Source of the DNA: a phage
Sequence record: NC_105513.1
Reading direction: 5' to 3' (one strand)
DNA length: 51,277 nt
The notes below the pieces were generated by a model. It saw only the letters and a list, made by a program, of their open reading frames with translations. It searched no databases and was not told the origin of the DNA. The number at the start of each line of letters is the position of its first letter. Positions within the stretch are counted from its first letter, which is position 1. Below are positions 1 through 18,072 of this stretch, piece after piece. The position numbers were made by a program, and so were the translations under genes.

Positions 1-31
1 CTTTTATTTCTCCTTTCGTTTCGGTGAAGTG

Positions 32-76
32 ATTATGCCAGGCTTTTACACCTGGCTTTTAACAAAAAGTGCTATT
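32..76 (-). promoter_or_regulatory. box-type promoter (box 57..76, -10 CATAAT 32..37)
   Basis: rc reads AATAGCACTTTTTGTTAAAA-N22-CATAAT; serves gene 50891..51277 across the junction. Confidence 0.6.
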
Positions 77-782
77 TTGCGTTTGCTTCGAAGACTGCGC
101 GAGCAAAACCGCGCGGAGTGAGGGAGCGGATCATCTTTGTGCGAGATGATTTTCCGCCAGTTTTGGCCCAGCCTGGATTATCTTTGTCATTCTCTTTCGG
201 CAGGATTAAAGCGCGCTGAGGAATAACAAATCCGTTTCCAGTCCAAAGGCATGTTTTCTTAAAGTAGCGATCCCGCGCCGGAATAATATCAGGAAAGTCG
301 GGATGTTTATCATCTTCCGGAAGATAGCCAGCATAATCGCACGGATGGAACGTATAATCAGGCTTGCGCCATAACGTTGACAGCTTGCCTACAGGATTCT
401 CTATCATGTACGGAACGCCGAAATAATCAGCAATTTGCGCCGCTATTTTGCAAGTGTCGGCGGCCTCATCCTGGAAAGAGGGATTCTCAAGGCGTTTTTT
501 GGACCAATGGCGAGATCCGCTATTTGCAAGGTCAGTGCACGGCGGAAATGCCATAATGAAATCAGGCTTGCCCCAATTTTCAAGTTTTGCGGTATATTTG
601 AATAGCTCATCAATCCACACATTAACGTAAAAAATATTATCATGGATTATGCGCACTGATTGGTAATCTCCATGATCTGCATCATCGTAATTAAAGCAAA
701 TGCATTTATATCCAGCATCAGCCCAATCTTTAACGGCTTTACCAGATCCATCAAACAAAGAGAATATTAAACCTTTATACAT
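72..782 (-). CDS. DNA (cytosine-5)-methyltransferase-like protein
   Basis: 236 aa; ordered motifs FSLFDGSG (FxGxG AdoMet site), FPPC (PC catalytic Cys), IENPVG (ENV); RBS GAGGTG upstream; stop TAG embedded in promoter box. Confidence 0.55.
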   Translation of the reverse strand: MYKGLIFSLFDGSGKAVKDWADAGYKCICFNYDDADHGDYQSVRIIHDNIFYVNVWIDELFKYTAKLENWGKPDFIMAFPPCTDLANSGSRHWSKKRLENPSFQDEAADTCKIAAQIADYFGVPYMIENPVGKLSTLWRKPDYTFHPCDYAGYLPEDDKHPDFPDIIPARDRYFKKTCLWTGNGFVIPQRALILPKENDKDNPGWAKTGGKSSRTKMIRSLTPRGFARAVFEANAK

Positions 783-791
783 TTCATCACC

Positions 792-1016
792 TCAAAACGG
801 AAAGCATCTAGGGCAGTTCGGATCAAAATTGCAACCACAATCATTAACAATCATGGTTGGATCTGCAAATGCAGCGCCGCATTCATGGTCCATATCCATT
901 TCACCCAACGCATCATCAAGCGTCCTGATTTTATATGCGACCTCAAGCGCGGCCTCTTTATTCAGTCCGGCATCTTCTGCTTTTTGCAGTCGCTCAAAAA
1001 AACCGTCTTGACTCAT
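792..1016 (-). CDS. hypothetical cysteine-rich small protein
   Basis: 74 aa ORF, RBS AAGGAG; C-terminal CGCNFDPNCPRC cluster. Confidence 0.5.
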   Translation of the reverse strand: MSQDGFFERLQKAEDAGLNKEAALEVAYKIRTLDDALGEMDMDHECGAAFADPTMIVNDCGCNFDPNCPRCFPF

Positions 1017-1126
1017 TTAATAAACTCCTTAACAACAGCAAGAATAATCACAAGCCCAGCAGTAAAAACAAGCAAACCGACAAGGCCAATCATAACACCA
1101 AATAAAATATCAAGCGCCTTAATCAT
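1013..1126 (-). CDS. putative small hydrophobic peptide (37 aa)
   Basis: MIKALDILFGVMIGLVGLLVFTAGLVIILAVVKEFIK read from reverse complement; single predicted TM helix; stop overlaps next ATG; below ORF-track length cutoff. Confidence 0.3.
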   Translation of the reverse strand: MIKALDILFGVMIGLVGLLVFTAGLVIILAVVKEFIK

Positions 1127-1137
1127 TTATTCACCAT

Positions 1138-1166
1138 TGATAAAATGGGAGGCGGCAACCTCCCAT
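1138..1166 (-). terminator. rho-independent terminator
   Basis: 8-bp stem ATGGGAGG/CCTCCCAT, 6-nt loop, U-run on minus strand. Confidence 0.45.
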
Positions 1167-1173
1167 TGATTAA

Positions 1174-1434
1174 TCATACAGCCTTCCAGCTTTCAATAAA
1201 CATGCTGTTTTCTTCCAGAAGTTTAATCAATTCTTCGCGCGTATATTTGCGGATTTTACTACCTGGATGTGAGCCAACAACAAACACACCTTTACCACTT
1301 GTGATGGTTAACTGGTTAATTCCGCAAGATTTATCCATTTTCACGGCGACGCGGTGATGTGCATCAACAGTGTGCATGATGTTAGTGACTTTAGCTTTCA
1401 TTATGCGATCCTCATTGTACTTAGTGTAGGACAT
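1174..1434 (-). CDS. hypothetical protein
   Basis: 86 aa ORF in early leftward block. Confidence 0.5.
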   Translation of the reverse strand: MSYTKYNEDRIMKAKVTNIMHTVDAHHRVAVKMDKSCGINQLTITSGKGVFVVGSHPGSKIRKYTREELIKLLEENSMFIESWKAV

Positions 1435-1439
1435 TATAT

Positions 1440-1673
1440 TTACTTCAAATTCTCGATCTTGTTATTGCCAATTGCAGAATGAACGCAACGCTCTTGCGTC
1501 TCCTTGTCGCCATGAACATCAATATAATAACCAGGTATGACAGTAAAAAACCAATTACCACGCCAGAAGAAATAAAGGCCATGCTTGCTTCCTTTCGCGC
1601 ATTTATTAGCATTTTTAGGTATTGGAAGTCCGTGTACTCTCCGCAATTCTACATTCTTGTTAAAATTTGGCAT
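1440..1673 (-). CDS. hypothetical protein
   Basis: 77 aa ORF, RBS GGAGG 7 nt upstream. Confidence 0.5.
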   Translation of the reverse strand: MPNFNKNVELRRVHGLPIPKNANKCAKGSKHGLYFFWRGNWFFTVIPGYYIDVHGDKETQERCVHSAIGNNKIENLK

Positions 1674-1867
1674 TACACAACCTCCATAAAAGTATTGAAT
1701 CCACGCAGTTTGAAAGCATTGCCATGCTTAACAACGTTCCATGTCAGGCCGGAGTGATACGCAACCATATCCTCAAGATCAATGGTGATGATAGCGCCTT
1801 TCTTAAAGATTCCTTTCTCGTGAGTGGTGTCACGCTGTACAACTTTAACGTCAACCTGTGTTTCCAT
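1673..1867 (-). CDS. hypothetical protein
   Basis: 64 aa ORF preceded by promoter box 1924..1943 and conserved leader GAGGATTTAAAAATG. Confidence 0.5.
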   Translation of the reverse strand: METQVDVKVVQRDTTHEKGIFKKGAIITIDLEDMVAYHSGLTWNVVKHGNAFKLRGFNTFMEVV

Positions 1868-1898
1868 TTTTAAATCCTCATTCGTTGTCGATGCGCAT

Positions 1899-1943
1899 AA
1901 TATACCAATCAGAGGCGCATCGTTTTTAACAAAAAGTGCTATT
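1899..1943 (-). promoter_or_regulatory. box-type promoter (box 1924..1943, -10 TATATT)
   Basis: box, 22-bp spacer, TATATT, then conserved leader CATCGACAACGAATGAGGA. Confidence 0.6.
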
Positions 1944-2218
1944 CAACAACAGATCCAGTTAAAGAGATAAGCTGCCTTGTGATCATACTGACGCGCAACA
2001 ACCGGAAGATTTTCACCGCTCTGATGACCGAAGCAGATCGGCAACTCACCCTCAAGAGAGCGGAAGCCGCCAAATTCAAGATCCCGCACTGGCTTTGAGC
2101 GCCACGCTTCAATAAATCCGCGTTCGTCACGCGTGATATAGTGGTATATGTTAGGGAGGGGCAATTGTACACCCTCAAAATCCACGGTATCGGTATAGCT
2201 GTAAAACTTAGAACTCAT
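1943..2218 (-). CDS. hypothetical protein
   Basis: 91 aa from Met MSSKFYSY; RBS GGAG; start overlaps stop of 2208..2360. Confidence 0.5.
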   Translation of the reverse strand: MSSKFYSYTDTVDFEGVQLPLPNIYHYITRDERGFIEAWRSKPVRDLEFGGFRSLEGELPICFGHQSGENLPVVARQYDHKAAYLFNWICC

Positions 2219-2360
2219 AGTCAACAACTCCAAATTCGTTAACGATTTGCGCCTTATAGAATCCGCCATTTTTCGCAAGGTTGTAGCAGGCCGCTACAGT
2301 TTCAAATTCTCGCACTTCCGGCTGGCTGTTTTCATGTTCCCAGGTAATCAGAGTAACCAT
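2208..2360 (-). CDS. hypothetical small protein (50 aa)
   Basis: MVTLITWEHENSQPEV... read from reverse complement; preceded by promoter box and conserved leader GAGGATTTGAAAATG. Confidence 0.45.
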   Translation of the reverse strand: MVTLITWEHENSQPEVREFETVAACYNLAKNGGFYKAQIVNEFGVVDYEF

Positions 2361-2393
2361 TTTCAAATCCTCGCATTCGTTGTCGATGTGTGT

Positions 2394-2438
2394 AATATAT
2401 CGGATTGCGAGGATTGAGTTTTAACAAAAAGTGCTATT
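2394..2438 (-). promoter_or_regulatory. box-type promoter (box 2419..2438, -10 TATATT)
   Basis: box, 22-bp spacer, TATATT, conserved leader. Confidence 0.6.
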
Positions 2439-2704
2439 TAGTCCAGGAATTCGATTTCGCGCTCGCCAGTTAACGGATCTTTAATCCAGAATCCGAGCGC
2501 CTCACCGTAAATACCGCCATAGAATCCAAGCGCCGACAGATCCTCACCTTTAACAAATACCAGATCCCCGCTACGGCTTACGTGAGATACGTTAACGATA
2601 ACCGGAAAGGTGCGATCCTTAAATGCAGGCCGCAGGGCGTAACATCCGTTATTGAGCAAACGTGCTTTGCGCTTAACTGGAATAGGTGCATTGATTCGCG
2701 CCAT
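2438..2704 (-). CDS. hypothetical protein
   Basis: 88 aa ORF; stop abuts promoter box 2419..2438. Confidence 0.5.
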   Translation of the reverse strand: MARINAPIPVKRKARLLNNGCYALRPAFKDRTFPVIVNVSHVSRSGDLVFVKGEDLSALGFYGGIYGEALGFWIKDPLTGEREIEFLD

Positions 2705-2717
2705 CTTTATTTCTCCT

Positions 2718-2963
2718 TCATTGTTGATCGTGTTTAACGGCCATCAGAACATCACAGGACTCGTTAATGAATTTAGCCATGCGTTTATCATCACCAACAG
2801 GTATTAGCGCGTTAAACTCGCGTTTGCTACTGAATACCGTCACTTTATGAAACGATGCGAACGGCATCGACGGGAACTCGACTGTTTGCGTCAAGATTCG
2901 CAATCCCATCTTTTTGGCCCTTATCTGGGCCTCAGCGAGTTCAAAATCCACTTCACTAATCAT
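2718..2963 (-). CDS. hypothetical protein
   Basis: 81 aa ORF, overlaps start of downstream gene by 4 nt. Confidence 0.5.
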   Translation of the reverse strand: MISEVDFELAEAQIRAKKMGLRILTQTVEFPSMPFASFHKVTVFSSKREFNALIPVGDDKRMAKFINESCDVLMAVKHDQQ

Positions 2964-3232
2964 TTCTTGATCTCCTCAGCAATAAACTTCAGGACTTTGC
3001 GCAAAAACACTTCATTATTGATGGTCGCTGGCAATTCTTCTTTTACTTCTTGCGGCAGGTAAACGTTGCCATGCCAGGTTAAGCAATCGTAGTTGATACG
3101 ATAAGAGCAAAGCCACTCGCAATCGTTATCCGCTTCCCAAATGCAGAGTTGCAGAACATCACCGAAATCCTCAACAGTCAGATCCAGACCGTGACGCTTT
3201 GCAAAGTTGAAAGTGGTTTTGCTGATGTTCAT
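2960..3232 (-). CDS. hypothetical protein
   Basis: 90 aa ORF, RBS AGGAG; first gene after promoter box 3296..3315. Confidence 0.55.
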   Translation of the reverse strand: MNISKTTFNFAKRHGLDLTVEDFGDVLQLCIWEADNDCEWLCSYRINYDCLTWHGNVYLPQEVKEELPATINNEVFLRKVLKFIAEEIKK

Positions 3233-3270
3233 TTGCTTTCTCCTGATGGGTATCTCGTTTCGATGTGTGC

Positions 3271-3315
3271 ATTATGCCGAATCCAGTCAGGCACGTTTTA
3301 ACAAAAAGTGCTATT
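3271..3315 (-). promoter_or_regulatory. box-type promoter (box 3296..3315, -10 CATAAT)
   Basis: box, 22-bp spacer, CATAAT, leader CACATCGAAACGAGA; first promoter of leftward early block. Confidence 0.6.
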
Positions 3316-3539
3316 TGCTTACTGGTCATTATTCCATCTATTCCATTAATCAGGAATAACAGGAATAACTCATTCGCGATCACCTGGATTGGGAGACTTT
3401 GAGTTTGGTCAATTTTAATCAAGTGATTAACTTTTTGTGTGGAGGGGATAGAGAAACGCTGCCCTCTTGCATCCTTTCCGACAATCCTGGCGCGCGCATC
3501 TGTTATTTCTGTTCCCCATGTTATCTCAAATAAGCCTCC

Positions 3540-3868
3540 GCACTTTTAGATAACAGAATCGGCGTTCATCAACAAAAAGAACAAAATAAAATTTATATAT
3601 ATACCCATAAAATCAATAAGTTAGTTATATATGTATTTATATTTGTTATTTACTGTTGAGCTTGTTCTATGGGTATATGGTGGAGTGGTATTGTTTGTGG
3701 TGATATGTATGTGTGATTGTATATTTTTTAATCAATGGTGATATGTGGTGATTTTTGTATGTATATATATAGGTATGGAGCAATCCTCCGTCAACCAAGT
3801 CAACAAGGTCATTTTTAAAAGAAAAACCAATGACTTAACTGAAGCATTTTGTTATCTTTAAACGCGCC
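3540..3868. repeat. AT/GT-rich non-coding region A, homologous to region B
   Basis: ORF-free; shares exact 16-mer AAATCAATAAGTTAGT (3610..3625) and about 55 bp of flanking similarity with 32755..32812; GGTGAT iteron-like repeats. Confidence 0.6.
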
Positions 3869-3904
3869 ACATGCCAAAAATTGTTATTAAAACACAAAAA
3901 TACA

Positions 3905-3933
3905 TTGACACGTATGAAAGGCAAGGCAATAAT
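3905..3933 (+). promoter_or_regulatory. sigma70-like promoter TTGACA-17-AATAAT
   Basis: canonical spacing, about 35 nt upstream of ATG 3970. Confidence 0.5.
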
Positions 3934-3969
3934 GCATCCAGTTTAAACGCAACAAAAGGAGTAGACGCC

Positions 3970-4455
3970 ATGAGCGAAGAAAATATTAGCACCATGTCGC
4001 GTAGTGAGTTCTGCGATATGCTTCGCAGCCTGGGCGCGGCAATTGGTAGCGGTGAGCGTAATGATGTATTCATGCCAGCACTTTTTTTGTGCGCTAACGT
4101 GGAGAACGGCGAAGCAATTACGGCATCGTACATGCGCCAAGTGGTCAACCGTGTGCCAGAAGTAAAGCAAAAAGGCGTGATCAGCATTAAGCGAAAGGTG
4201 ACTGATGAGGGTGATGGCTTTGTGTTTACGCTCACTGAAGCCAAAAGCAAGCCTCGCGTTCTGACTGGTGAAGAAATCGACGAGATCGCAGAAAAGCGCG
4301 CAGAGAAGGCGGTAAGCAAAATTCTTAATCACCTGGTAAACGTAATGCCAAATATCACAGACCTGGAAGGCGACAAACTTGCTGGGGCGTGTGAGGCTAT
4401 CGGGCGCTACCAGGATATGATTCGTAAACTCGCTGGAGGAAAAGAGGATGAATAA
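3970..4455 (+). CDS. hypothetical protein
   Basis: 161 aa from MSEENIST; RBS AAGGAG; downstream of TTGACA-17-AATAAT promoter. Confidence 0.6.
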   Translation: MSEENISTMSRSEFCDMLRSLGAAIGSGERNDVFMPALFLCANVENGEAITASYMRQVVNRVPEVKQKGVISIKRKVTDEGDGFVFTLTEAKSKPRVLTGEEIDEIAEKRAEKAVSKILNHLVNVMPNITDLEGDKLAGACEAIGRYQDMIRKLAGGKEDE

Positions 4456-4708
4456 GGCATTAATTGGAGTTTTGATTGCAATCGCTACCCTTACCGGATG
4501 CGAAAAGGCATCTGAATCAACAGTTGTCGTAGGAGTGGAGTCAGATTTTAAAGTCGGTCGCCTGTTTACTGTTGATGGATGCACTGCGTACCGATTCTAT
4601 GACAACGGTCGAGCAATCTATTACACCAATTGTAAGGGCGCAACGGATAGCACATACCGCAGCGGCAAAAACGTAATGCACCAACAAGTCACAACAGATA
4701 TTAAATAG
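4448..4708 (+). CDS. putative lipoprotein
   Basis: 86 aa; N-terminal signal peptide with lipobox LTGC (MNKALIGVLIAIATLTGCEK). Confidence 0.6.
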   Translation: MNKALIGVLIAIATLTGCEKASESTVVVGVESDFKVGRLFTVDGCTAYRFYDNGRAIYYTNCKGATDSTYRSGKNVMHQQVTTDIK

Positions 4709-4748
4709 CACTTTTTGTTAAAACTCGAAAACGATAACCAGGCATAAT
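4704..4748 (+). promoter_or_regulatory. box-type promoter (-10 CATAAT 4743..4748)
   Basis: AATAGCACTTTTTGTTAAAAC, stop TAG 4706..4708 inside box; 22-bp spacer. Confidence 0.6.
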
Positions 4749-4803
4749 AAATCACATAGGGCGGCACGGCGTCGCACAGTTAAACCAATCAGGAGAAAGC
4801 ACC

Positions 4804-5697
4804 ATGTTAAAACTTGCTGACATTAAATTCCCGATCACCTTCGAATCTCGCGGCATTGGTCATTACATTTTTACCGATGAAAAAACATGCCATAAGGTTG
4901 ATATGAATAGCGACAAACTAACCCCATCAACAATGGAGATTGAACACTTTATTGATGCACACAATACGCACTACAACGCACTTAAAGACTATGGCTATGC
5001 AATGCCAGGCTACACATGTTTGCACTACAAGCCATATAAGGGCCAGGTGTTACCAGTGCGCTCACCGGAACGCGCAGAGATTCCGATGGTCAATATGAAA
5101 ACCTGCGACTACAAAAAGCTGTGGTGCTTAAGTCTGGACAATATCAAGTATCCGATCACGTTCCACACGACTGGTAAGTCAACGATTCGCTACACATCGC
5201 GCGACAATGGCGTTTATAGCGATGGTACGAAATCAGGGTTGAAAGTTGATTTCTTTGTCAATGGTCACAACAAGTTCAATCCGCACAATGAAAAGGATAA
5301 GGTGTACTACGTGGAAGATATTACAAAACACTTGTTTGGAGAAACACCATTCGGCGGCGGTAAGACGTCAATTCAACAAATCATTGGCGAGGAGATCCAC
5401 AAGGCAGCCGTTGAAATGAAAGCGCCTGGAGGATGGCGTATTGATAAGAGCGCAATTGTCTATCAAGAAATAGTAACGCAGGGCGCAATTGAAGACATGC
5501 CACTTGCCGCCACGCTAAAAGGCGTCCAAATTGCGGATGGCACATGGTTTGAATTAACGGCAAAACCAAAGACTATCGAGATTCATGATGATGTTGTTAT
5601 TCTTCTGCTTCATTACGGTAGCGCAAAAAACCGTACCGTTGCGGGTGAGATTAGCATCAAGCGCGGAACGATGGTTAAGTGGAATGTCAAAGTGTAA
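4804..5697 (+). CDS. hypothetical protein with internal tandem duplication
   Basis: 297 aa; two homologous segments (LADIKFPITFESRGIGHY... and LDNIKYPITFHTTGKSTI...). Confidence 0.65.
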   Translation: MLKLADIKFPITFESRGIGHYIFTDEKTCHKVDMNSDKLTPSTMEIEHFIDAHNTHYNALKDYGYAMPGYTCLHYKPYKGQVLPVRSPERAEIPMVNMKTCDYKKLWCLSLDNIKYPITFHTTGKSTIRYTSRDNGVYSDGTKSGLKVDFFVNGHNKFNPHNEKDKVYYVEDITKHLFGETPFGGGKTSIQQIIGEEIHKAAVEMKAPGGWRIDKSAIVYQEIVTQGAIEDMPLAATLKGVQIADGTWFELTAKPKTIEIHDDVVILLLHYGSAKNRTVAGEISIKRGTMVKWNVKV

Positions 5698-5740
5698 ATA
5701 GCACGAATTGTTAAAACTCAAATGTGGGGCCAGGTATAAT
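5697..5740 (+). promoter_or_regulatory. box-type promoter (-10 TATAAT 5735..5740)
   Basis: AATAGCACGAATTGTTAAAAC; 21-bp spacer. Confidence 0.6.
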
Positions 5741-5770
5741 GGCCTCACTTTCAACGAAGGAGATAAAACG

Positions 5771-6208
5771 ATGTACATTAGCAAGAAGATGAAATGCGTT
5801 TCCGTTAATTATGGTTGTGCTGGAATGTTCAAGCCTGGCGAAATCTATACGGCGCAAAAACTGAAATCATCAACCGGATCCTTTTACGTGAGCAATAGTA
5901 AAGGGCATCGCATGTTCCTGAACGGTGGCGAAGGCACTAAGGTTATGGCGCACGCTATGGTGATTGCTGAATTTGAGGAAGTGAAAGATGGAACAAATAA
6001 GCGCGTTAAGCACAAGTTTATTGATAATCATGGCGATGCACTTGAGGTATATAAGTTCGGCGATCGCGTGTTTATTGATGGCACATTTGAAGGTGGACGC
6101 AGGCCGGATTTTAGATCGATACTCACCATTGACCAGGTGCGCAAGCTGGCGGATAAGTTAAATGATCTGGCAGATGAAATCGAATACAAGCAAATTCATT
6201 TTAATTGA
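5771..6208 (+). CDS. hypothetical protein
   Basis: 145 aa from MYISKKMK; RBS AAGGAG. Confidence 0.55.
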   Translation: MYISKKMKCVSVNYGCAGMFKPGEIYTAQKLKSSTGSFYVSNSKGHRMFLNGGEGTKVMAHAMVIAEFEEVKDGTNKRVKHKFIDNHGDALEVYKFGDRVFIDGTFEGGRRPDFRSILTIDQVRKLADKLNDLADEIEYKQIHFN

Positions 6209-6219
6209 TAGGTTTGATA

Positions 6220-6759
6220 ATGAAAAAATACGAATTTGAACTTTGGGGCAGCAAATACCATTTTTCCACGAGCAAGCCGATTGTTATCGTTGACCTGGAC
6301 GGAACGTTATCAGACGGAACGCATCGCTTACACCTGCTTCCGACAGAAGATTTGCACCTTACAGAAAGCTGGTCTGAGTTCAATAAGGCGGCTGTTGGCG
6401 ATTCGCCGATTAAGAGCACGGTTGCAGTGGTTAACGGTTTGTGGATGTCAGGATTTGCCATCGTTATCCTGACCGGACGTAGCGATGAAGTGATGGAGGA
6501 CACCTGCAAATGGATTAACGAAAACGGCATCAAGTACGATGCGTTAATCATGCGCCGCAAGGAAGACAACCGCAAAGACACAATCATTAAAGAAGAAGTC
6601 TTGCGCGCTATCGGCCTAGAAAACATCGTGTGCGCTTTTGATGATTCGCCGAACGTGGTTAAGCACTTCCGCAGCCTGGGAATCACAACCTATCAGGTCA
6701 CGGAATACGACAAGCCACATAATCATATCCAATCGCATGGCGTGGAGGAATTGAAATGA
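6220..6759 (+). CDS. HAD-superfamily phosphatase-like protein
   Basis: 179 aa; DxDGT nucleophile motif (IVIVDLDGTLSDG), later ILTGR and FDDSP motifs typical of HAD hydrolases. Confidence 0.6.
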   Translation: MKKYEFELWGSKYHFSTSKPIVIVDLDGTLSDGTHRLHLLPTEDLHLTESWSEFNKAAVGDSPIKSTVAVVNGLWMSGFAIVILTGRSDEVMEDTCKWINENGIKYDALIMRRKEDNRKDTIIKEEVLRAIGLENIVCAFDDSPNVVKHFRSLGITTYQVTEYDKPHNHIQSHGVEELK

Positions 6760-6917
6760 TCTGGTTACTTTTAATCTTTGTCACAAGTTACAATTCCGCC
6801 GCTATTGAATCGCAAGAGTTCCACGGCGAATCAAGATGCCAGGAAGCACGAAAACAAGTTGTTCTCCACATGTCAGATAGTGGGAAAGATGTAACAGCGC
6901 TATGCGTTCGTAAATAG
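6756..6917 (+). CDS. small membrane protein (MIWLL family, 53 aa)
   Basis: ATG overlaps upstream stop; hydrophobic N-terminus MIWLLLIFVTSY; stop TAG embedded in promoter box. Confidence 0.45.
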   Translation: MIWLLLIFVTSYNSAAIESQEFHGESRCQEARKQVVLHMSDSGKDVTALCVRK

Positions 6918-6957
6918 CACTTTTTGCAAAAACACATTATCGGGCTTGCGGTATAGT
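6913..6957 (+). promoter_or_regulatory. box-type promoter (-10 TATAGT 6952..6957)
   Basis: AATAGCACTTTTTGCAAAAAC; 21-bp spacer; conserved leader CCCATCGACAACAAGCGAGGA. Confidence 0.55.
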
Positions 6958-6988
6958 AAGCCCATCGACAACAAGCGAGGATTAAATC

Positions 6989-7253
6989 ATGGTTAATAAA
7001 GTTGAGTTTTTCAAAGCGGTAGACAAGATTGACGGCGCGCCAAGTTTCTTTGCTATCCATTCCATTGACGGCGAAAGACGTTGCATACAACGTGATTAGT
7101 CGAGACGGTATATCAAAACTTAGTGACCTGGTGGGTTATATTGTGGCAAACGGGAAATGTGCATGGCCCGATTCGCCACGAGAGCCGCGCCGCCGCGACA
7201 TGCAAAATCCAGTCCTGCTTTACACGCTGGTAATTGAAGGAGTCAACAAATGA
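6989..7253 (+). pseudogene. frameshifted or two-part ORF (hypothetical protein)
   Basis: ATG at 6989 with conserved leader and RBS GAGGA reads 36 codons to TAG 7097..7099; the +1 frame stays open to 7253 with no ATG of its own. Confidence 0.3.
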
Positions 7254-7435
7254 TTTGGTTACTTGTATTTTTGGTGGTTTTCTTTTATATTTCAGGCTTA
7301 TTCATCTTCCGTGCGCTGGTGAAAACATGCGATTGCACGGATAAAGATCATCCTCTTGTTCTGATGTTCTGGTTTGTGTGGTTTTGGGTTGCGCTTTATC
7401 AGATTGTACGGGATAAAAGCGGATTCAAGTGGTGA
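7250..7435 (+). CDS. small membrane protein (MIWLL family, 61 aa)
   Basis: Starts MIWLLVFLVVFFYISGLFIF; two hydrophobic segments; paralog of 6756..6917. Confidence 0.5.
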   Translation: MIWLLVFLVVFFYISGLFIFRALVKTCDCTDKDHPLVLMFWFVWFWVALYQIVRDKSGFKW

Positions 7436-7629
7436 TTCTTACTATAGCGCATTCACGCAGTGCGCTATGTTGAGATAACAACATGAGATCATGAAGATGC
7501 GAAACTTCGAAAAAATCGTATCCAAAAAGAAGCGATACAGCTACCACGAGCACCAAGAGATGAATCAACGCTATCGCAATAAGCGCCAGCGCAAAGGTAA
7601 ACATTCCGGTAAACATGGAGAAAATCAAT

Positions 7630-8220
7630 ATGAAACGCGACATTATCATTCTTAACGGACCGCCAGGAGTTGGCAAAGATACGCTTGCGGCATACTTAAC
7701 GGGTCATCGTTACGCAGCGGTTAAAGCGTCATTTAAACAGCCTATGTTCGATATTGCATTCTCCATGCTTGGCGTTTACCGATATGACGAGTTCATTGAT
7801 CTGTATAACGACCGTGAGCAGAAAGAAAAGCCTCAAGCAATCTTGCAAGGTAAGTCTCCGCGACAATTCATGATCTGGATTAGCGAAGAAGTCATGAAGC
7901 CAGCTTTTGGCGAGCAATATTTTGGGAATCGCATGGTTGAGCAAGTACACGAGATGTACAGAGATTTAGCTGTTGTAATTAGTGATGGCGGATTCCCTGA
8001 AGAAATCAAGCCGCTCGTTAAGGCAGGCCATGAAGTTCACATTTGCCGACTGCATCGCGAAGGATTCACGTTTGATGGCGATTCACGAAACTATATTGAC
8101 CTGAGCGGATACCATCACCGAGTCAAGCATTACGACTTCACAATGATTGATGGCGAGCCAGAAAAGACTGTTGACGAGATCATCAAAGCGGTGCAGTGGA
8201 AACACACAAAGATTGAATAG
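7630..8220 (+). CDS. P-loop nucleotide kinase-like protein
   Basis: 196 aa; Walker A ILNGPPGVGKDT near N-terminus; RBS GGAG. Confidence 0.6.
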   Translation: MKRDIIILNGPPGVGKDTLAAYLTGHRYAAVKASFKQPMFDIAFSMLGVYRYDEFIDLYNDREQKEKPQAILQGKSPRQFMIWISEEVMKPAFGEQYFGNRMVEQVHEMYRDLAVVISDGGFPEEIKPLVKAGHEVHICRLHREGFTFDGDSRNYIDLSGYHHRVKHYDFTMIDGEPEKTVDEIIKAVQWKHTKIE

Positions 8221-8260
8221 CACGAATTGCTAAAAGCGGGGCGCAATGCCTCGCTATAAT
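8216..8260 (+). promoter_or_regulatory. box-type promoter (-10 TATAAT 8255..8260)
   Basis: AATAGCACGAATTGCTAAAAG; 22-bp spacer. Confidence 0.6.
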
Positions 8261-8290
8261 GCAAACACCAATCAACGAGAGGAAATCATC

Positions 8291-8692
8291 ATGGTAGAGT
8301 TAAACGACATTCGCGTTGGAACAAAATTTCGCGTAACCTGGGCAGATGAATATTGCGGCGTTAGCAAGGGCCAGGTTGTTACTGTGGATAGTATTTATCG
8401 CGGATGCAGCAAAGACTTTCGCCGCCCACGCATCAAGAATGGCTATATCATTACTCGCCGTTTTGGATTTGATCATTATTGCGTAGTGGCGACTCAAGGA
8501 GTTTTGATTGAGCTTAAGCGAATCAGCGATCATCGCGGCTGTCATGTTAAGACAATGAAGACACCATCTCAGCGATCGCGATACGATGCGCGCAGGATGC
8601 GCAGGCTTGCACGAAACGCGATCAAGTTCAAAAAGCCTGGTGGTAACTTTTACCGAATGTACAAAGGGATTGCGCGAAATGCTGGAAAATAA
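8291..8692 (+). CDS. hypothetical protein (basic C-terminus)
   Basis: 133 aa from MVELNDIRVG; RBS GAGAGGAA. Confidence 0.55.
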   Translation: MVELNDIRVGTKFRVTWADEYCGVSKGQVVTVDSIYRGCSKDFRRPRIKNGYIITRRFGFDHYCVVATQGVLIELKRISDHRGCHVKTMKTPSQRSRYDARRMRRLARNAIKFKKPGGNFYRMYKGIARNAGK

Positions 8693-8791
8693 CAACAACG
8701 CAACCAATCCAAAGCCGCCATTTGATTTTCATGAAATCATGATTGTGTTATTCTTGATTCTCTTAGTTATTTATTCAGTGAGGGCCGCACT

Positions 8792-9055
8792 ATGGTTTTT
8801 AACGCACTAAAACGAATCTTTAAACCTGAATACCGGATCGTTGCTTGCACAGAATGCAAGATTTATTACCTGCAACGCCGCCGCGTTATTAGTGGGGATT
8901 GGGAATATCTGACGGATGATGCTTTCGGATTTTGGGCTATGGAGTTCAATAGCTACAGCGAAGCGCGTGAATACGCTAAAAAGTTGCACAAGTTCAGACC
9001 TTACAAGCTGCGTTTGCTGGTTGTCAAAAAATGCGATGTGTTGGATCACGAATGA
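8792..9055 (+). CDS. hypothetical protein
   Basis: 87 aa, RBS GAGGG; CTEC motif. Confidence 0.5.
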   Translation: MVFNALKRIFKPEYRIVACTECKIYYLQRRRVISGDWEYLTDDAFGFWAMEFNSYSEAREYAKKLHKFRPYKLRLLVVKKCDVLDHE

Positions 9056-9231
9056 AAAGAGTAATTATCATTTTTATTACCATTATCGCTGGTTGCTACC
9101 TGGCTTATAATTATAGCGGCATTGTTGAGTCAATCGGCGGGTTGATTATCTTCATGGCTGGCGGGTATGCTGGCTATTGTGATGGATTCGAAAACGGAAA
9201 GCGTTACATGCTGACCGGAAAAAAGAAGTAA
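9052..9231 (+). CDS. small membrane protein
   Basis: 59 aa from MKRVIIIFITIIAGCYLAY; ATG overlaps upstream stop. Confidence 0.5.
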   Translation: MKRVIIIFITIIAGCYLAYNYSGIVESIGGLIIFMAGGYAGYCDGFENGKRYMLTGKKK

Positions 9232-9273
9232 TGTTAACCGCGCCGCTCCGGTGGCGCTAAAAGGAGGAAGCAA

Positions 9274-9561
9274 ATGGCTAAAAGCAATCGTAAAATGTTG
9301 ATTAACGCATTCGAAAAGGCAGCGCTTGAGCGTGGCTGGAATGACTCATTTCACACAGCAAACTGTATCCGCCGTTACGGATTCAAGAATTGCCGCTCCT
9401 GGGCGCGTCAAATGGCTTCATGGTATGATCTTGATGCGCATTACCTTGATATGGATTGCGCCCTTGTTGAAATGATTGAGCAGGCCGCATTAGAGGATCG
9501 ACCATTAACGCAATCTGATTTTGACGATTTTGTGCGCGATGAAATTTATTATATGAGCTAA
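9274..9561 (+). CDS. hypothetical protein
   Basis: 95 aa, RBS AAGGAGGAAG; stop followed by promoter box. Confidence 0.55.
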   Translation: MAKSNRKMLINAFEKAALERGWNDSFHTANCIRRYGFKNCRSWARQMASWYDLDAHYLDMDCALVEMIEQAALEDRPLTQSDFDDFVRDEIYYMS

Positions 9562-9604
9562 TAGCACTTTTTGTTAAAACTTCCGCGAGGGCATTTGTTA
9601 AAGT
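9560..9604 (+). promoter_or_regulatory. box-type promoter (weak -10 TAAAGT)
   Basis: AATAGCACTTTTTGTTAAAAC; 22-bp spacer to TAAAGT. Confidence 0.45.
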
Positions 9605-9636
9605 GTCCTCATTGAAGCGAAATAGAGGAAAGCGCA

Positions 9637-9855
9637 ATGAAAATCAAGATTATAGACGTGAACAATGCCATTAGTGGTGACGAACTTACACTTGAGGAGT
9701 GCGGGATTGAGGTTGGCGATGTGTTCGAAGTTACCGGACAATATCGCGATGGAACTTTGAGCATTCAAGCGCCACGAGATACCGATGATGGTTGCATCAA
9801 GGCTGGCGATGAATTGAGCGTTAACGAAGGTGAATATGAGGTTGTAGAAGAATGA
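9637..9855 (+). CDS. hypothetical acidic protein
   Basis: 72 aa, RBS GAGGAA. Confidence 0.55.
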   Translation: MKIKIIDVNNAISGDELTLEECGIEVGDVFEVTGQYRDGTLSIQAPRDTDDGCIKAGDELSVNEGEYEVVEE

Positions 9856-10115
9856 TCACGATTAACCTGTCAGAGCAGCAAGCGCGCATTATGTTAGCGG
9901 CCTTTGGTTGGCGAGATGATGACGGTATTCAGGCAACGGTTAAAATCCCTGATACGGTAGCGCGTGAAGTTTTTAACCAGCTTGAACACGCATTTGTTCC
10001 TGTTGGCACTGATCAGGCAGAAACAGCGGCTTGGTTCGGAGAGAACGGATACAGAGATCAGCAAGTCGAAAACTGGAAGCGCAAAAACGAGACTGCGGAG
10101 GAGGCCGGATTATGA
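9852..10115 (+). CDS. hypothetical protein
   Basis: 87 aa, start overlaps upstream stop. Confidence 0.55.
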   Translation: MITINLSEQQARIMLAAFGWRDDDGIQATVKIPDTVAREVFNQLEHAFVPVGTDQAETAAWFGENGYRDQQVENWKRKNETAEEAGL

Positions 10116-10426
10116 TTTACATTCACTACTACCAGATCGGGACAAACGAAAACAAGCAGGAGCGCAGAGCAATTTGTGACACGCTCGACGATGCGAAAGC
10201 ACAGCAACGCGTTTTGGGTGGTGTAATTCAGGCTTTTGAGCCAGTGGAAGATATAGAGCACCGAGAGCATTTGAAAGAGATTGTTGTTGATGAAATTTCA
10301 TCACTAATCGACGACATGACAAATCACGGGCCTGGTTCTCCGTGGGAAGAAGCCGGATCGACGGAGTGGGATTGTGCTAAAGTTGCAACGCTTAACGAAT
10401 TTCGTGAGTTGCTAGACGATTTTTAA
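10112..10426 (+). CDS. hypothetical protein
   Basis: 104 aa from MIYIHYYQ, RBS GGAGGAGG. Confidence 0.55.
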   Translation: MIYIHYYQIGTNENKQERRAICDTLDDAKAQQRVLGGVIQAFEPVEDIEHREHLKEIVVDEISSLIDDMTNHGPGSPWEEAGSTEWDCAKVATLNEFRELLDDF

Positions 10427-10624
10427 TTAAAATTGAATGCCTCATACAGCGAACAGGACGCATTTTGACGAGGTATTTTTTATGTAAGGTGATTCAATGG
10501 GTAGCTATATAAAACCGTCGCAATGGTGCGCACAGAAGCAAGAGGAAGCATTAGAGCGCGGCAACAATGAAACAGCAATGCACTATTTCGAAATGTACAA
10601 CTTGTGGAAGGGTAGAGGTCTGTA

Positions 10625-10855
10625 ATGTTTGGAATGAACGAGGCACAATTCAACGCTGCAAAACGCCAGGCTAAGAAGTGCGGCGAGGCAATGAAGGCGG
10701 ATGTTGAAAAGCGCGGGAAGTATGTTGATGAAGTCATGAAGGGCATTATTGCCGAACATTATCAGCCAGTTGCGCCAATGCTGACAATTACCCAATTCAT
10801 CTGGTTGTGTGGTTATCTTCGTGGGAGATGGGGAAACGCATTTGACCGCGAATGA
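10625..10855 (+). CDS. hypothetical protein
   Basis: 76 aa ORF. Confidence 0.5.
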   Translation: MFGMNEAQFNAAKRQAKKCGEAMKADVEKRGKYVDEVMKGIIAEHYQPVAPMLTITQFIWLCGYLRGRWGNAFDRE

Positions 10856-10884
10856 TTGACAACGATTTCCTGATTGGTTAGCAT
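10856..10884 (+). promoter_or_regulatory. sigma70-like promoter TTGACA-17-TAGCAT
   Basis: in 164-bp ORF-free gap; followed by structured region and U-run. Confidence 0.35.
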
Positions 10885-11019
10885 ATTCAGCGTTTACATA
10901 AGAGCGGCATTAGTGCCGAACGGGTGGCGCGGTTGCCACGCAACAATGGCGATGTGCTGGAGGTTATTGCGATGCAATATAATCCGTAAGACGTATCGCC
11001 TTTTTTTATAGGTGAATAT

Positions 11020-11253
11020 ATGGAAAAGTACAAATTAACTTTCATGTTTAATAGCATGGTGATGAATCCCTTAAATGGTTACGCTTGCAATAGCTTTTCT
11101 GTTACCGTTAATGAGGATGAAATTGATGATGATGGAAAATTCATTCGAATTGGTGAATACTTGTACCCAGTGCACAATATCAATTGCATCAAACGCGAGA
11201 TCGTAAAAGATGAAGTACAAGGTAAGGTTGACGATCAGGCGAATGGGGCGTAA
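11020..11253 (+). CDS. hypothetical protein
   Basis: 77 aa ORF, RBS GGTGA. Confidence 0.5.
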   Translation: MEKYKLTFMFNSMVMNPLNGYACNSFSVTVNEDEIDDDGKFIRIGEYLYPVHNINCIKREIVKDEVQGKVDDQANGA

Positions 11254-11395
11254 TTGCTCGTCATGTAGACAAAGTTTTGAATGTGATGTTGAAGCGCGCG
11301 GAGAGCTTGAGGCAGCAGCAAGAGCAAAAGAGTTGTCCGGCGCTAATCAAGACACTCACCAGTTTTCAATAGATCTTGTAAGGAAAATGTCATGA
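11243..11395 (+). CDS. hypothetical zinc-ribbon-like small protein
   Basis: 50 aa from MGRNCSSCRQSFECD; overlaps preceding ORF, start uncertain. Confidence 0.35.
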   Translation: MGRNCSSCRQSFECDVEARGELEAAARAKELSGANQDTHQFSIDLVRKMS

Positions 11396-11631
11396 GTTCT
11401 GTAATTATTGGTTTGGTTGCTTTAATCATTGGTGTTCTAATCGGCTTTGTTGCTGTATCTTTCGTGGTGGCTGTTGGTGTTCGCTATAAGTCAAAAAAAG
11501 GTGAATTTGCTTTAGCGTTTTGGGATGAAGATCAGAAAGTTTGGCAGGTTCGCGGTCACTACTTATCAATCGGTGGCAGGATTCACAGCACTATGAAGAC
11601 AAATCCAGAAAAAGTAAAATACAAGTATTGA
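11392..11631 (+). CDS. hypothetical membrane protein
   Basis: 79 aa; N-terminal TM segment VIIGLVALIIGVLIGFVAVSFVVAV. Confidence 0.5.
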   Translation: MSSVIIGLVALIIGVLIGFVAVSFVVAVGVRYKSKKGEFALAFWDEDQKVWQVRGHYLSIGGRIHSTMKTNPEKVKYKY

Positions 11632-11638
11632 ACAACTA

Positions 11639-11661
11639 CCCGCCAAATGGCGGGTTTTTTA
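11639..11661 (+). terminator. rho-independent terminator
   Basis: CCCGCC-AAAT-GGCGGG then TTTTTT. Confidence 0.6.
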
Positions 11662-11683
11662 TTGCCTGCAATTTGTCTATAAT
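11655..11683 (+). promoter_or_regulatory. putative promoter with consensus -10 TATAAT (11678..11683)
   Basis: perfect -10 about 28 nt upstream of terminase small subunit ATG; -35 not convincing. Confidence 0.35.
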
Positions 11684-11711
11684 GATGCTTTGTTATAAAG
11701 GAGGGCGCATT

Positions 11712-12233
11712 ATGGCTAAAAACGTTGAGCCAGCAGTAAAGGCTTGCAATTTTAAAAAACTATATAATAAGCAATATGGCGATATAGCAAAAATGACAAA
11801 GGCGCACAAGTACACGCCGGAGCAGGTATTTGATCTGGCTGTTCGTTACTTTACGTGGGCTGAGGAAAACCATATACAGGCTGCGGAAACGGCATCCTTT
11901 CAGGGTGACGTATACGAAAGTAAGATTCACAAGCCGCGCGTGTTCACCTTAAATGGATTCCGCTTATTCGCTGGCCTTTCTGCCTCCGTACTTGAAAAAT
12001 GGCGACGTGAGCCAGGATTCAGCGATGTTATGGACTTTATCGACGGCGTTGTTTACGAGCAAAAATTCCAGCTTGCCGCAAACAATATTGTTAACGCTGG
12101 ATTCATTGGCAAAGAGATCGGCATTGAAAAGCCAGCTACCGTTACCATTGAGAATAACACAAGCGCCAGCGTTGACGCTGTAACGGCGGAGGAAGTAAAA
12201 GAGGCGGTAATTGACATTCTGGAGAAGATATAA
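11712..12233 (+). CDS. putative terminase small subunit
   Basis: 173 aa directly upstream of and overlapping the large terminase start; RBS AAGGAGGG; assigned by position only. Confidence 0.5.
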   Translation: MAKNVEPAVKACNFKKLYNKQYGDIAKMTKAHKYTPEQVFDLAVRYFTWAEENHIQAAETASFQGDVYESKIHKPRVFTLNGFRLFAGLSASVLEKWRREPGFSDVMDFIDGVVYEQKFQLAANNIVNAGFIGKEIGIEKPATVTIENNTSASVDAVTAEEVKEAVIDILEKI

Positions 12234-13801
12234 TGCTGATTTGGGAAGACTTAACAGCGGCGCAAAAACGCGCCGTTAAGGAAATGAGCGAATATTCATT
12301 CGAAAAGATGATCCGCATTTGGTTTCAACTTCTCCAGGGGCAAAGGTTTTTAGGAAACTGGCATTTCAGTTACCTATGCAGCGAAGTTGAAAAAATCATC
12401 AAAGGCGAGTCACAGAATGTAATTTTCAACATAACGCCAGGCAGTGGTAAAACAGAGATATTCTCGATCCACATGTCACCTTATGCGTCATTGAAAAGTA
12501 AGAAGGTGAGAAATCTTAATTTGTCGTTTAGTGATGGCCTTGTCCAGCAGAATAGCAACCGCATCAAAGAGATTATTGGTTCTCCAGAATGGCAGGAGCT
12601 ATGGCCTGGAAAGTTGGCAAAGGCGAGCGCAAAGGATTTGATTGTAACTGATGGCGGCAAGGTTAAATTACAAGTTAACTCGCGTTCTATCGGAGGTCAG
12701 GTTACTGGTCTGCGTGGTGGCTACATGGACGATGGTTTTACTGGTATGTTGGTTCTTGATGATCCAGACAAGCCGGATGACATGCTTTCTAAGGTGAAGC
12801 GCGAAGCCGGACACATGCGCCTAAAGAACACGGTGCGATCGCGTCGAATGAAGGACACCACGCCAATTGTGATGGTTCAGCAACGTCTACACGTCAATGA
12901 TTCAACATGGTTCATGACAAACGGCGGCATGGGCGGCATCAAGTTTAAGGTGGTTAGTATTCCGGCGCTCGTTACTAAGGAATATCGCGAAACGCTTCCT
13001 GATTGGTTAAAGCCTGAGTTTGATCGCGATGTTTTGTCCAGTAAGCCAGTGATGATTGATGGCGTTGCTCATTATTCATTCTGGCCTGCTAAGGAAAGCG
13101 CGGATGAATTGCTTGCGCTTCGCAATGCCGATCCGTACACGTTCGCTAGTCAGTATCAGCAACAGCCTGTTGCGCTTGGCGGTAACGTGTTTAAAACAGA
13201 GTGGTTTCAGTATTACGGAAGCAGCGAGAAATGCACGCTACCAAAACCGGATCGCTTTGAATATACATTTATCACGGTTGATACCGCGCAGAAAACAGGG
13301 GAGCTTAACGACTATTCCGTGATCTGTTATTGGGGGATGTATAAAGATCGTGTCTACTTCATTGATGGCGTTCGCGGGAAATGGGAAGCACCGGACCTTG
13401 AGACGAATTTTGTTGCATTCGTTAATCAGTGCTGGAAGCGCAATAAAGAATGCGGAACGTTGCGAAGGATTCATGTTGAAGATAAATCGTCTGGCACTGG
13501 ATTGATTCAGAGTGCGGCGAAAAAAATCATGATCAAGATCAATCCCGTTCAGCGCGATAAAGACAAGGTTACTCGTGCAATGGACGCAGCACCAGTAATG
13601 CGCGCCGGACGCGTGGCACTTCCAGAATCTCATTCTATGCTGGCTGAGATACTCGCTGAAGTTGCGGCGTTCACATTCGATGATTCGCATCCTCATGATG
13701 ATATTGTTGATAACATCATTGATGCGGTTAACATTGAAATGAACATGGCAGATGATCCGGTTGGAAGAATGAAAAAATTGGCAGGTTTGCGGAACAAATA
13801 G
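12233..13801 (+). CDS. terminase large subunit
   Basis: 522 aa; N-terminal ATPase with Walker A ITPGSGKTE and acidic Walker B LVLDDPDKPDD; C-terminal nuclease-like region; position before portal. Confidence 0.85.
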   Translation: MLIWEDLTAAQKRAVKEMSEYSFEKMIRIWFQLLQGQRFLGNWHFSYLCSEVEKIIKGESQNVIFNITPGSGKTEIFSIHMSPYASLKSKKVRNLNLSFSDGLVQQNSNRIKEIIGSPEWQELWPGKLAKASAKDLIVTDGGKVKLQVNSRSIGGQVTGLRGGYMDDGFTGMLVLDDPDKPDDMLSKVKREAGHMRLKNTVRSRRMKDTTPIVMVQQRLHVNDSTWFMTNGGMGGIKFKVVSIPALVTKEYRETLPDWLKPEFDRDVLSSKPVMIDGVAHYSFWPAKESADELLALRNADPYTFASQYQQQPVALGGNVFKTEWFQYYGSSEKCTLPKPDRFEYTFITVDTAQKTGELNDYSVICYWGMYKDRVYFIDGVRGKWEAPDLETNFVAFVNQCWKRNKECGTLRRIHVEDKSSGTGLIQSAAKKIMIKINPVQRDKDKVTRAMDAAPVMRAGRVALPESHSMLAEILAEVAAFTFDDSHPHDDIVDNIIDAVNIEMNMADDPVGRMKKLAGLRNK

Positions 13802-13817
13802 CACGAATCGACAAACC
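13797..13817 (+). promoter_or_regulatory. degenerate box copy without correctly spaced -10
   Basis: AATAGCACGAATCGACAAACC at terminase stop; followed by terminator, not a -10. Confidence 0.4.
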
Positions 13818-13831
13818 AATATATAATCAAA

Positions 13832-13856
13832 GGCTGGTAAATCCAGCCTTTTTTAT
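13832..13856 (+). terminator. rho-independent terminator between terminase and portal
   Basis: GGCTGG-TAAAT-CCAGCC then TTTTTTATT. Confidence 0.6.
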
Positions 13857-13869
13857 TGGAGGAAAGATA

Positions 13870-15150
13870 ATGAGTAAATCACGAATCGTTAAGGCTGATG
13901 GCTATAACGAGATCTTTAAAGGCGAGAATTGCAAATCGCGAGTAGAGCAACCATTCTACATGCAATCAATGCCATACAAGACACTTGCTGACTTTTACGA
14001 AAAAGACGGCCTGGCAAAAAGGGTTATTGACGTAGTACCAGAGGAAATGGTTTCCCCTGGCTTCACGGTTGACGGCGTGGCAGACGAGGCAGCATTCCGT
14101 TCTTTGTGGGATGAGAAGCGATTGAATGCAAAAATTATTGATGCGCTTTGCTGGTCGCGTTTGTTTGGTGGATCTGCAATCATTGCTCTTGTTCAGGATG
14201 GGCGAGCGCTCAAATCACCTGTAAAGCCTGGTGCCATGTTGGAGGATGTGCGAGTTTACGATCGCTATCAGATTCGCGTTGAAGCGCGCGAAACTAATCC
14301 CCGCAAGGTTCGCTATGGTGAGCCAGTGCTTTACACTGTAACGCCAGGCGGAGACTTGCCGGAATACCAGGTACACTACACGCGCGTTTGCATTATCGAC
14401 GGTGAGCGGATACCTAACGCAAAGCGACGCAGCAATGATGGCTGGGGTGAGTCAGTTCTTAACAAGCGACTTGTTGAGGCTATTGTTGATTATAACTATT
14501 GTGAAACATTGGCAACGCAATTATTGCGGCGTAAGCAACAGGCGGTATGGAAGGCTAAAGGACTCGCTGACTTGTGCGATGATGAGGAAGGTGTTAGCGC
14601 GGCACGCCTGAGACTTGCGCAGGTTGACGATGAGGGCGGCGTAGGCAAGGCCATTGGTATTGATGCTGAGGATGAGGAATATGATGTTCTTAACTCTGAC
14701 ATTAGCGGAGTTGATTCTTTTCTGGAAAAGAAAATGGATCGCATAGTTTCCCTTTCAGGTATTCATGAAATCATCCTGAAAAATAAAAACGTTGGCGGCG
14801 TTAGCGCAAGCCAAAACACGGCGCTTGAAACATTCTATAAACTTATTGAGCGAAAACGCGTTGAGGATTACAAACCTATCCTTGAATTTCTATTGCCGTT
14901 CATCATTAGTGAGCAGGAGTGGAGCATTGAGTTTTCACCTTTGAGCGTGCCTAGCGATAAAGATCAGGCTGAAATTCTGAATAAGAATATCGACTCAATC
15001 AGCAAGGCTATTGATGGTCAGTTCCTTGATGTTGAAGAAGCGCGAGACACGTTGCGAGCAATCGCCCCAAGCGTTAAACTAAAGGACACTAATAAAATCA
15101 AGCTGCCGGAGCCATCGGAGCCGGAGCCAGGCACGCAGGGGAATGAGTAA
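13870..15150 (+). CDS. portal protein
   Basis: 426 aa immediately after terminase, RBS GGAGGAAAG; size and position typical. Confidence 0.75.
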   Translation: MSKSRIVKADGYNEIFKGENCKSRVEQPFYMQSMPYKTLADFYEKDGLAKRVIDVVPEEMVSPGFTVDGVADEAAFRSLWDEKRLNAKIIDALCWSRLFGGSAIIALVQDGRALKSPVKPGAMLEDVRVYDRYQIRVEARETNPRKVRYGEPVLYTVTPGGDLPEYQVHYTRVCIIDGERIPNAKRRSNDGWGESVLNKRLVEAIVDYNYCETLATQLLRRKQQAVWKAKGLADLCDDEEGVSAARLRLAQVDDEGGVGKAIGIDAEDEEYDVLNSDISGVDSFLEKKMDRIVSLSGIHEIILKNKNVGGVSASQNTALETFYKLIERKRVEDYKPILEFLLPFIISEQEWSIEFSPLSVPSDKDQAEILNKNIDSISKAIDGQFLDVEEARDTLRAIAPSVKLKDTNKIKLPEPSEPEPGTQGNE

Positions 15151-15914: not shown

Positions 15915-15917
15915 TTA

Positions 15918-17030: not shown

Positions 17031-17042
17031 GGAGAAATAAAC

Positions 17043-17555: not shown

Positions 17556-17562
17556 TAAATAT

Positions 17563-17586
17563 GGCGCTCACTGAGCGCCTTTTTTA
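17563..17586 (+). terminator. rho-independent terminator
   Basis: GGCGCTC-ACT-GAGCGCC then TTTTTTAT. Confidence 0.65.
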
Positions 17587-17600
17587 TATTTGGGGTTATC

Positions 17601-18035: not shown

Positions 18036-18054
18036 CACAAAATTATGTTGCACG

Positions 18055-18072
18055 TTTAACAAAAAATGCTAT
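18055..18072 (-). promoter_or_regulatory. orphan box copy, inverted relative to flanking genes
   Basis: TTTAACAAAAAATGCTAT about 50 bp upstream of major capsid ATG; no -10 at 21-22 bp on the minus strand. Confidence 0.4.

Follow-up and report, generated by a model that had tools for sequence, protein, structure and literature searches.

The locus studied here lies where the last base of the window—the whole 51,277-nt stretch of DNA that was analyzed—meets its first. Reading the first 120 and the last 678 bases on both strands, we found that the reverse complement of 1..31 is CACTTCACCGAAACGAAAGGAGAAATAAAAG and that it continues into an ATG at 51277..51275, in agreement with the first-pass annotation. 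The window ends in ...AACTTTCAT, which reads ATGAAAGTT on the minus strand; from its last bases (...ATAACTTTCAT), the minus strand that begins at 51277 starts ATGAAAGTTAT. When the two ends are joined, a gene and its upstream region come together, with the following features in order from the gene outward:

50891..51277, minus strand: open reading frame of the junction gene (128 codons, a 387-nt CDS), from the list of reading frames
51275..51277, minus strand: start codon (ATG) of the junction gene, formed by the window's final three bases
1..9, minus strand: spacer AAATAAAAG, the 9 nt between ribosome-binding site and ATG, read from the sequence
10..14, minus strand: Shine-Dalgarno sequence AGGAG, kept in Hanrivervirus and Warwickvirus relatives
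25, minus strand: predicted transcription start, an A placed by geometry 7 nt past the -10
32..37, minus strand: -10-like hexamer CATAAT, with 5 of 6 matches to TATAAT, 19 nt past the box
37..56, minus strand: spacer hairpin, filling the gap between box and -10
57..76, minus strand: box AATAGCACTTTTTGTTAAAA, one copy of a Drexlerviridae direct repeat
72..782, minus strand: upstream gene of 236 aa, labeled DNA methyltransferase (from phrog_757 and annotations in relatives)

The coordinates that had been proposed for AGGAG, the 9-nt spacer, and the ATG of 50891..51277 all proved right, and the box and the -10 hexamer are both present where they had been placed. Read over the join, a TAA lies in frame two codons 5′ of the ATG, which makes this ATG the first possible start. 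The TAG stop codon of the upstream gene (72..74) sits inside the box, and transcription beginning at the predicted start would give a leader of 25 nt. Genomes of Hanrivervirus and Warwickvirus conserve this intergenic region in full, from the box and hairpin through CATAAT and AGGAG to the ATG.

Junction gene, upstream gene, and leftward block

The 128-aa junction protein (MKVICNKTNV...) belongs to phrog_2684, a family of unknown function (E = 3e-48), and profile searches returned no Pfam or NCBIfam family for it. It is 63.5% identical to the product of T1 gene 7 (gp7) over 74 aligned amino acids and has a homolog, pSf1_0020, in pSf-1. Annotations of G29-2, pSf-1, JLBYU09, SFP17, tunus, vojen, and JakobBernoulli all include this 387-nt CDS with an identical start. 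Public labels for the protein clash—hypothetical, MORN repeat-containing, and phosphoglucomutase/phosphomannomutase—and we set the last two aside, as searches of Pfam, NCBIfam, and PHROGs give them no support.

The label carried by the upstream gene was also looked at. Relatives name the product of 72-782 (minus strand) a 'Dcm-like C5 cytosine methyltransferase'; its length of 236 aa is low for such an enzyme, and it matched no Pfam family even at E = 10 and no NCBIfam family at E = 0.01, with phrog_757 as its only match.

Both genes belong to a leftward block that extends over the join, from 48211..51277 into 1..3315 or 1..3422, for a length of 6.4-6.5 kb. It holds a helicase, the methyltransferase-like protein, and small reading frames with no assigned function, along with several copies of the box and its downstream elements (hereafter, cassettes):

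1..3422, minus strand: proximal half of the block, with cassettes at 57..76, 1924..1943, 2419..2438, and 3296..3315
48211..51277, minus strand: distal half, collinear with T1 genes 10 to 7 and including two cassettes (50658..50677 and 48491..48510)
49022..50605, minus strand: helicase (DUF3987, phrog_2373)

The converging lysis genes end in a strong hairpin that carries a T-tract (48185..48207). The first-pass annotation had described the block as one unit of about 6.5 kb; its length agrees with ours, but with six cassettes it is a block of co-oriented genes rather than a single operon, and it probably comprises several transcription units.

The repeated cassette

The box is a known repeat of this phage family. 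In phage TLS, a 21-nt direct repeat with the consensus aaATAGCACnnnTTGnTAAAA occurs in 18 intergenic copies, oriented with transcription and followed by start codons at about 76 nt; its authors leave the function open among a stoperator, an enhancer site, and an UP-like element, and their promoter search covered TTGACA-N15-19-TATAAT only (PMC11447400). The junction box has zero mismatches to the window's own consensus and fits that of TLS. At three or fewer mismatches, 16 matches were found in the window against 0.09 expected from shuffled sequence, and a pattern search allowing up to five mismatches gave the 18 copies counted here:

57-76, 1924-1943, 2419-2438, 3296-3315, and 18054-18073, minus strand: box copies
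21814-21833, 32632-32651, 41197-41216, 48491-48510, and 50658-50677, minus strand: box copies
4704-4723, 5697-5716, 6913-6932, and 8216-8235, plus strand: box copies
9560-9579, 41685-41704, 44203-44222, and 45244-45263, plus strand: box copies

The junction copy lies on the minus strand, as do its flanking genes, and in 13 of the 18 cassettes a start codon, preceded by a ribosome-binding site, lies 72-83 nt from where the box begins. Two others, at 18054-18073 and 21814-21833 (both minus strand), oppose late structural genes and have no ribosome-binding site or reading frame downstream; the second of them reaches a GC-rich hairpin (21751-21772) within about 45 nt. Short antisense RNAs from these two cassettes are possible. 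Many cassettes also share a leader motif, CATCGAcAACGA or CATCGAAACGA, between the -10 and the ribosome-binding site, about 8-25 nt past the -10 (for example at 1885-1896, 2380-2391, and 6961-6972); the junction version is CACCGAAACGA.

What recurs with the box is a -10-like hexamer at a nearly constant distance. Defined as at least four of six matches to TATAAT, including A2 and T6, at a box offset of 18 or 19, such a hexamer accompanies 16 of the 18 boxes, compared with a background rate of 4.1%, and the offset is 19 nt in 13 of the cassettes. A canonical -35, on the other hand, is lacking: nothing near TTGACA was found 16-18 nt from the junction -10 (a 17-nt spacing gives AAAAGC), while TTGTTA was found 22 nt upstream. 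A sigma-70 consensus scan was negative both for the corresponding region of G29-2, which has the identical sequence, and for the other cassettes, and canonical sigma-70 matches in the leftward block are no commoner than in shuffled sequence. With the -35 absent at 16-18 nt and the scan negative, a canonical sigma-70 promoter at the junction was rejected. The promoter proposed in the first-pass annotation has its -10 and its box but no canonical -35, and its activity is predicted from sequence features. A literature search returned, beyond the TLS and SU57 papers, no transcript or start-site data for T1-like phages and no terminus mapping for Hanrivervirus.

Several other readings of these elements were considered. 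An extended -10 (TGn) is present at the junction (TGgCATAAT) but is not conserved over the cassettes. A sigma-54-type reading of the box (TGGCAC-N5-TTGC), judged by eye, was rejected, its spacing being two bases short and a -10 lying at a fixed distance. The geometry places the box where a -35 contact might be replaced—a transcription start 7 nt past the -10 would put it at -51..-32, with its center at -41.5, and -41.5 is a position typical of factors that take over the -35 contact. We infer from this arrangement that the junction cassette most likely acts as a promoter for host RNA polymerase that has no -35 and would depend on the box centered near -41.5, the box being read by RNA polymerase itself or by some other factor. 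On this model, the fixed distances from repeat to -10 and from repeat to start codon make testable predictions about promoters in T1-like phages, where conventional sigma-70 scans detect hardly any.

The gap between box and -10 is itself structured. At the junction, the hairpin at 37..56 (GCCAGGU-GUAAAA-GCCUGGC; 7 pairs, -13.7 kcal/mol, z = -2.9) directly follows the methylase stop codon and, in a covariation test, is nearly invariant among relatives. Comparably stable hairpins lie within the spacer or span the -10 in 11-12 of the 18 cassettes, with z ranging from -2.6 to -4.8 over all sites, in the following segments:

12-60, 1879-1927, 5713-5761, and 6929-6977: hairpin segments
8232-8280, 9576-9624, 41152-41200, and 44219-44267: hairpin segments
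45260-45308, 48446-48494, and 50613-50661: hairpin segments

The stem sequences vary from site to site, which suggests that the hairpins act at the RNA level, in read-through transcripts, and do not serve to bind a protein. On the opposite strand, a run of four Ts follows the junction hairpin; there the TTTT of the box comes after the hairpin, which could let the cassettes terminate antisense transcripts as well.

These hairpins raise the main alternative to a promoter, namely that 1..76 serves mainly as a terminator or 'stoperator' for the methylase gene and that the junction gene is read through from upstream cassettes. This account can draw on the stable hairpin right after the methylase stop, on the missing canonical -35, on the depositors' annotation of G29-2 (in which the same spacer hairpin is an ARNold terminator), on a comparable spacer hairpin at 48471..48489 that meets the terminator criteria of our scan, and on the inclusion of a stoperator-like role among the possibilities raised by the TLS authors (PMC11447400). 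We nevertheless consider it unlikely. On the transcribed strand, the sequence after the hairpin, AUAAUCAC, has no U-tract, and the hairpin, whose tail is AUAAUCACUU, was not called a terminator by the scan; moreover, 6-7 of the 18 cassettes are without a significant hairpin, most of them still with the box-N18/19-(-10) geometry, and both the fixed -10 spacing (16 of 18 versus 4%) and the start-codon spacing are what would be expected of promoters. Promoter and terminator-like roles are not exclusive and can coexist: the hairpin at 37..56 is possibly a terminator or 3′ stabilizer for the upstream methylase transcript and, within the promoter reading that we prefer, would most likely act on read-through RNA of that upstream gene. 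A possible UP-element reading of the box was not adopted: provided that the -10 has been placed correctly, the T and A tracts fall some 8 nt downstream of where the -59..-38 consensus would have them.

Continuity of the ends and identity of the genome

Contiguity of the two ends was examined against other phage records. A synthetic junction query of 523 nt, made of the last 261 and the first 262 window bases, aligned in one piece and over its full length in 83 phage records, and the position of the join among those relatives' records is scattered, from 67 to about 48,900. Used as separate queries, the terminal 700 nt at either end of the window found matches in dozens of records of T1-like phages, and in these the two matches abut; in EC147, one end-match stops at 38028 and the other begins at 38031 (query base 3). 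In JLBYU09, the final 457 nt are the junction reading frame plus window 1..70, unbroken and at 100% identity; its origin is offset from that of the window by 70 nt, and the remainder is collinear and 99.0-100% identical. The record of Shigella phage SFP17 opens at the very ATG at which the window is cut, and this, together with the scattered join positions, indicates that the record origin is a depositor's convention. The exact match in JLBYU09, the one-piece alignments in 83 records, and synteny with T1 all uphold the claim made in the first-pass annotation that the ends are contiguous.

Two features internal to the window bear on the same point. No terminal direct repeat of 10-400 nt was found in it, a result that is not decisive alone since assemblers collapse such repeats. 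The distance from box start to ATG at the junction is exactly 76 nt, and only with the ends joined; this family-typical value argues against a missing or duplicated base there.

The closest relatives of the window belong to the Drexlerviridae, subfamily Tempevirinae, genus Hanrivervirus, and the window carries terminase (TerS and TerL), portal, head, tail, replication, and lysis modules. We conclude that it is a complete Hanrivervirus genome, very probably that of Escherichia phage JLBYU41 (OK272479.1), which is listed as Hanrivervirus in a J Virol paper by the group behind the JLBYU09 record (PMC10373560). JLBYU09 (OK272487.1), also Hanrivervirus, resembles the window in its collinearity and 99.0-100% identity; it differs in length, lacking 2.3 kb spread over three places, and at least two of these are marked by N-runs in its record. 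The runs at 1544-1569 and 3867-3883 fall exactly where window 1612-2157 (546 bp) and 4455-4717 (263 bp) are missing, and the shortness of JLBYU09 thus looks like assembly ambiguity, not real deletion. The third difference corresponds to window 37946-39529, inside a repeat-rich reading frame for an 818-aa tail fiber (37715-40171). Between 15 and 22 of the records that match this coliphage type at the nucleotide level are named 'Campylobacter phage' (host Campylobacter jejuni). Such matches are unexpected for T1-like phages of enterobacteria and may reflect contamination or mislabeling.

Taken together, we put at roughly 90% the probability that the window is a complete T1-like coliphage genome, assembled as a circle and opened at a start codon, whose joined ends restore a cassette of this phage family, most likely a promoter without a -35. 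The source paper for JLBYU41 reports that the genome "circularized upon de novo assembly." On this account, short reads would have been assembled into a circle and then written out as a linear record cut at a minus-strand start codon, an in-silico cut that would part the gene at 50891..51277 from its own upstream region, 1..76. The joined order would then run from the box (with the methylase stop) through a 19-nt hairpin spacer to CATAAT, a leader of about 25 nt, AGGAG, and the ATG. That the window is a whole, circularly assembled genome, as the first-pass annotation had proposed, is borne out by JLBYU09, by the 83 records, and by the order of genes in T1. Coordinates 1 and 51277 therefore have no biological meaning, and, the window being the whole genome, the junction gene, its control region, and the 6.4-6.5 kb block must be read over the join. 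The junction is very probably no physical DNA end, a caution that applies to phages with headful packaging more generally, in which record ends should not be mistaken for virion ends.

Two further accounts of the ends are highly improbable. The first is that they are true virion termini (fixed ends, either cos or direct terminal repeats) and that their continuity is coincidental. The sole point in its favor is that the record is linear, and it is already effectively refuted: it would split a gene from its ribosome-binding site at an exact codon boundary; JLBYU09, at 100% identity, and 83 other records carry the two ends as adjoining sequence; the window is without a terminal repeat; the T1 family packages by headful; the origin of the T1 record maps about 3.5 kb from the junction; and the source paper reports circular assembly. 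The second, equally improbable, takes the window for an incomplete or wrongly joined contig whose junction has lost bases or carries them twice; in its favor one could cite the clear assembly problems of the sister record JLBYU09 (N-runs elsewhere in it), but the join has exactly the JLBYU09 sequence, relatives align over it without a gap, the joined ends restore the family-typical 76 nt from box to ATG, and the whole length is collinear with T1 and of a size typical of the genus (46-52 kb).

Comparison with T1 and other known systems

Gene order was compared with T1 as the T1-like reference, and T1 keeps the same order over the window's join. The homologs around the junction are:

48627-49019: homolog of T1 gene 10
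49022-50605: helicase, homolog of T1 gene 9
50891-51277: junction reading frame, homolog of T1 gene 7
792-1016: homolog of T1 gene 6
1174-1434: homolog of T1 gene 5

At the nucleotide level, T1 (NC_005833) 2268..46790 maps in order to window 6913..51061, and the window is thus the T1 map rotated by roughly 3.5 kb. T1 shares with it the gene order around the whole circle, the leftward block, and the adjacency of the homologs of the junction gene and its neighbors. The T1 record has an annotated repeat_region of 2.8 kb, its terminal repeat, at its start, and its leftward genes 10 to 1 run uninterrupted at the right end; its origin corresponds to a divergent window region at about 3.4-3.9 kb, not to the window's junction. 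T1 differs in having no methylase gene between genes 7 and 6, in an extra HNH gene, and in the inversion of some left-end genes relative to the window. Window 1440-1673, 2438-2704, and 3171-3422 (minus strand) are homologous to T1 1768-1992, 2605-2796, and 1444-1545 (plus strand); as leftward-block genes here match rightward left-end genes in T1, the region is partly inverted between the two phages, and the two putative early blocks diverge at a different point in each.

The packaging proteins are related as well, with 65% identity to T1 for TerL and 50% for TerS. T1 and TLS are described as headful packagers that start at pac and have terminally redundant, partly permuted genomes (PMC11447400; PMC7718038). 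By analogy, we infer that the present phage would package by headful from a pac site in the manner of T1; its virion DNA would then be redundant at the ends and partly permuted and would give a circular assembly. Its true virion ends, very probably not at the junction, may lie about 3.5 kb away.

Compared with TLS, the repeats of the window are alike in consensus, in number (18 copies), in their orientation with transcription, and in the distance of about 76 nt to the start codon; the fixed 18-19 nt spacing to a -10 and the nested hairpins seen in the window are not part of the TLS paper (PMC11447400). Much of what is described here is ordinary and known—circular assembly had been stated in the source paper, and the box is a published repeat—and only the fixed spacing between box and -10 and the nested hairpins are mildly new. 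T1 carries related elements: a -10-like hexamer occurs at the same box spacing in 13 of its 18 boxes, and upstream of gene 7 the box is followed by TAAAGT at the same spacing as at the window junction.

We see the chances as evenly divided on whether the junction cassette is one of 18 members of a distinct class of T1-like promoter, one that would combine a 20-bp box near -41.5, a spacer of 18-19 bp, and a -10 with no -35, the box being read by a factor or through an unusual contact of RNA polymerase, and with terminator-like hairpins nested in about two thirds of its members. Known -35-less promoters offer two points of comparison: class II activator-dependent sigma-70 promoters, such as those with CRP sites at -41.5, and the MotA-dependent middle promoters of T4, in which the MotA box lies at about -30. 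The box departs from these systems in that it is not palindromic, in a spacing that differs from that of the MotA box, and in having a putative factor only. What the junction cassette shares with class II and other -35-less promoters is a good -10, no -35, and, by its predicted geometry, an element centered at about -41.5.
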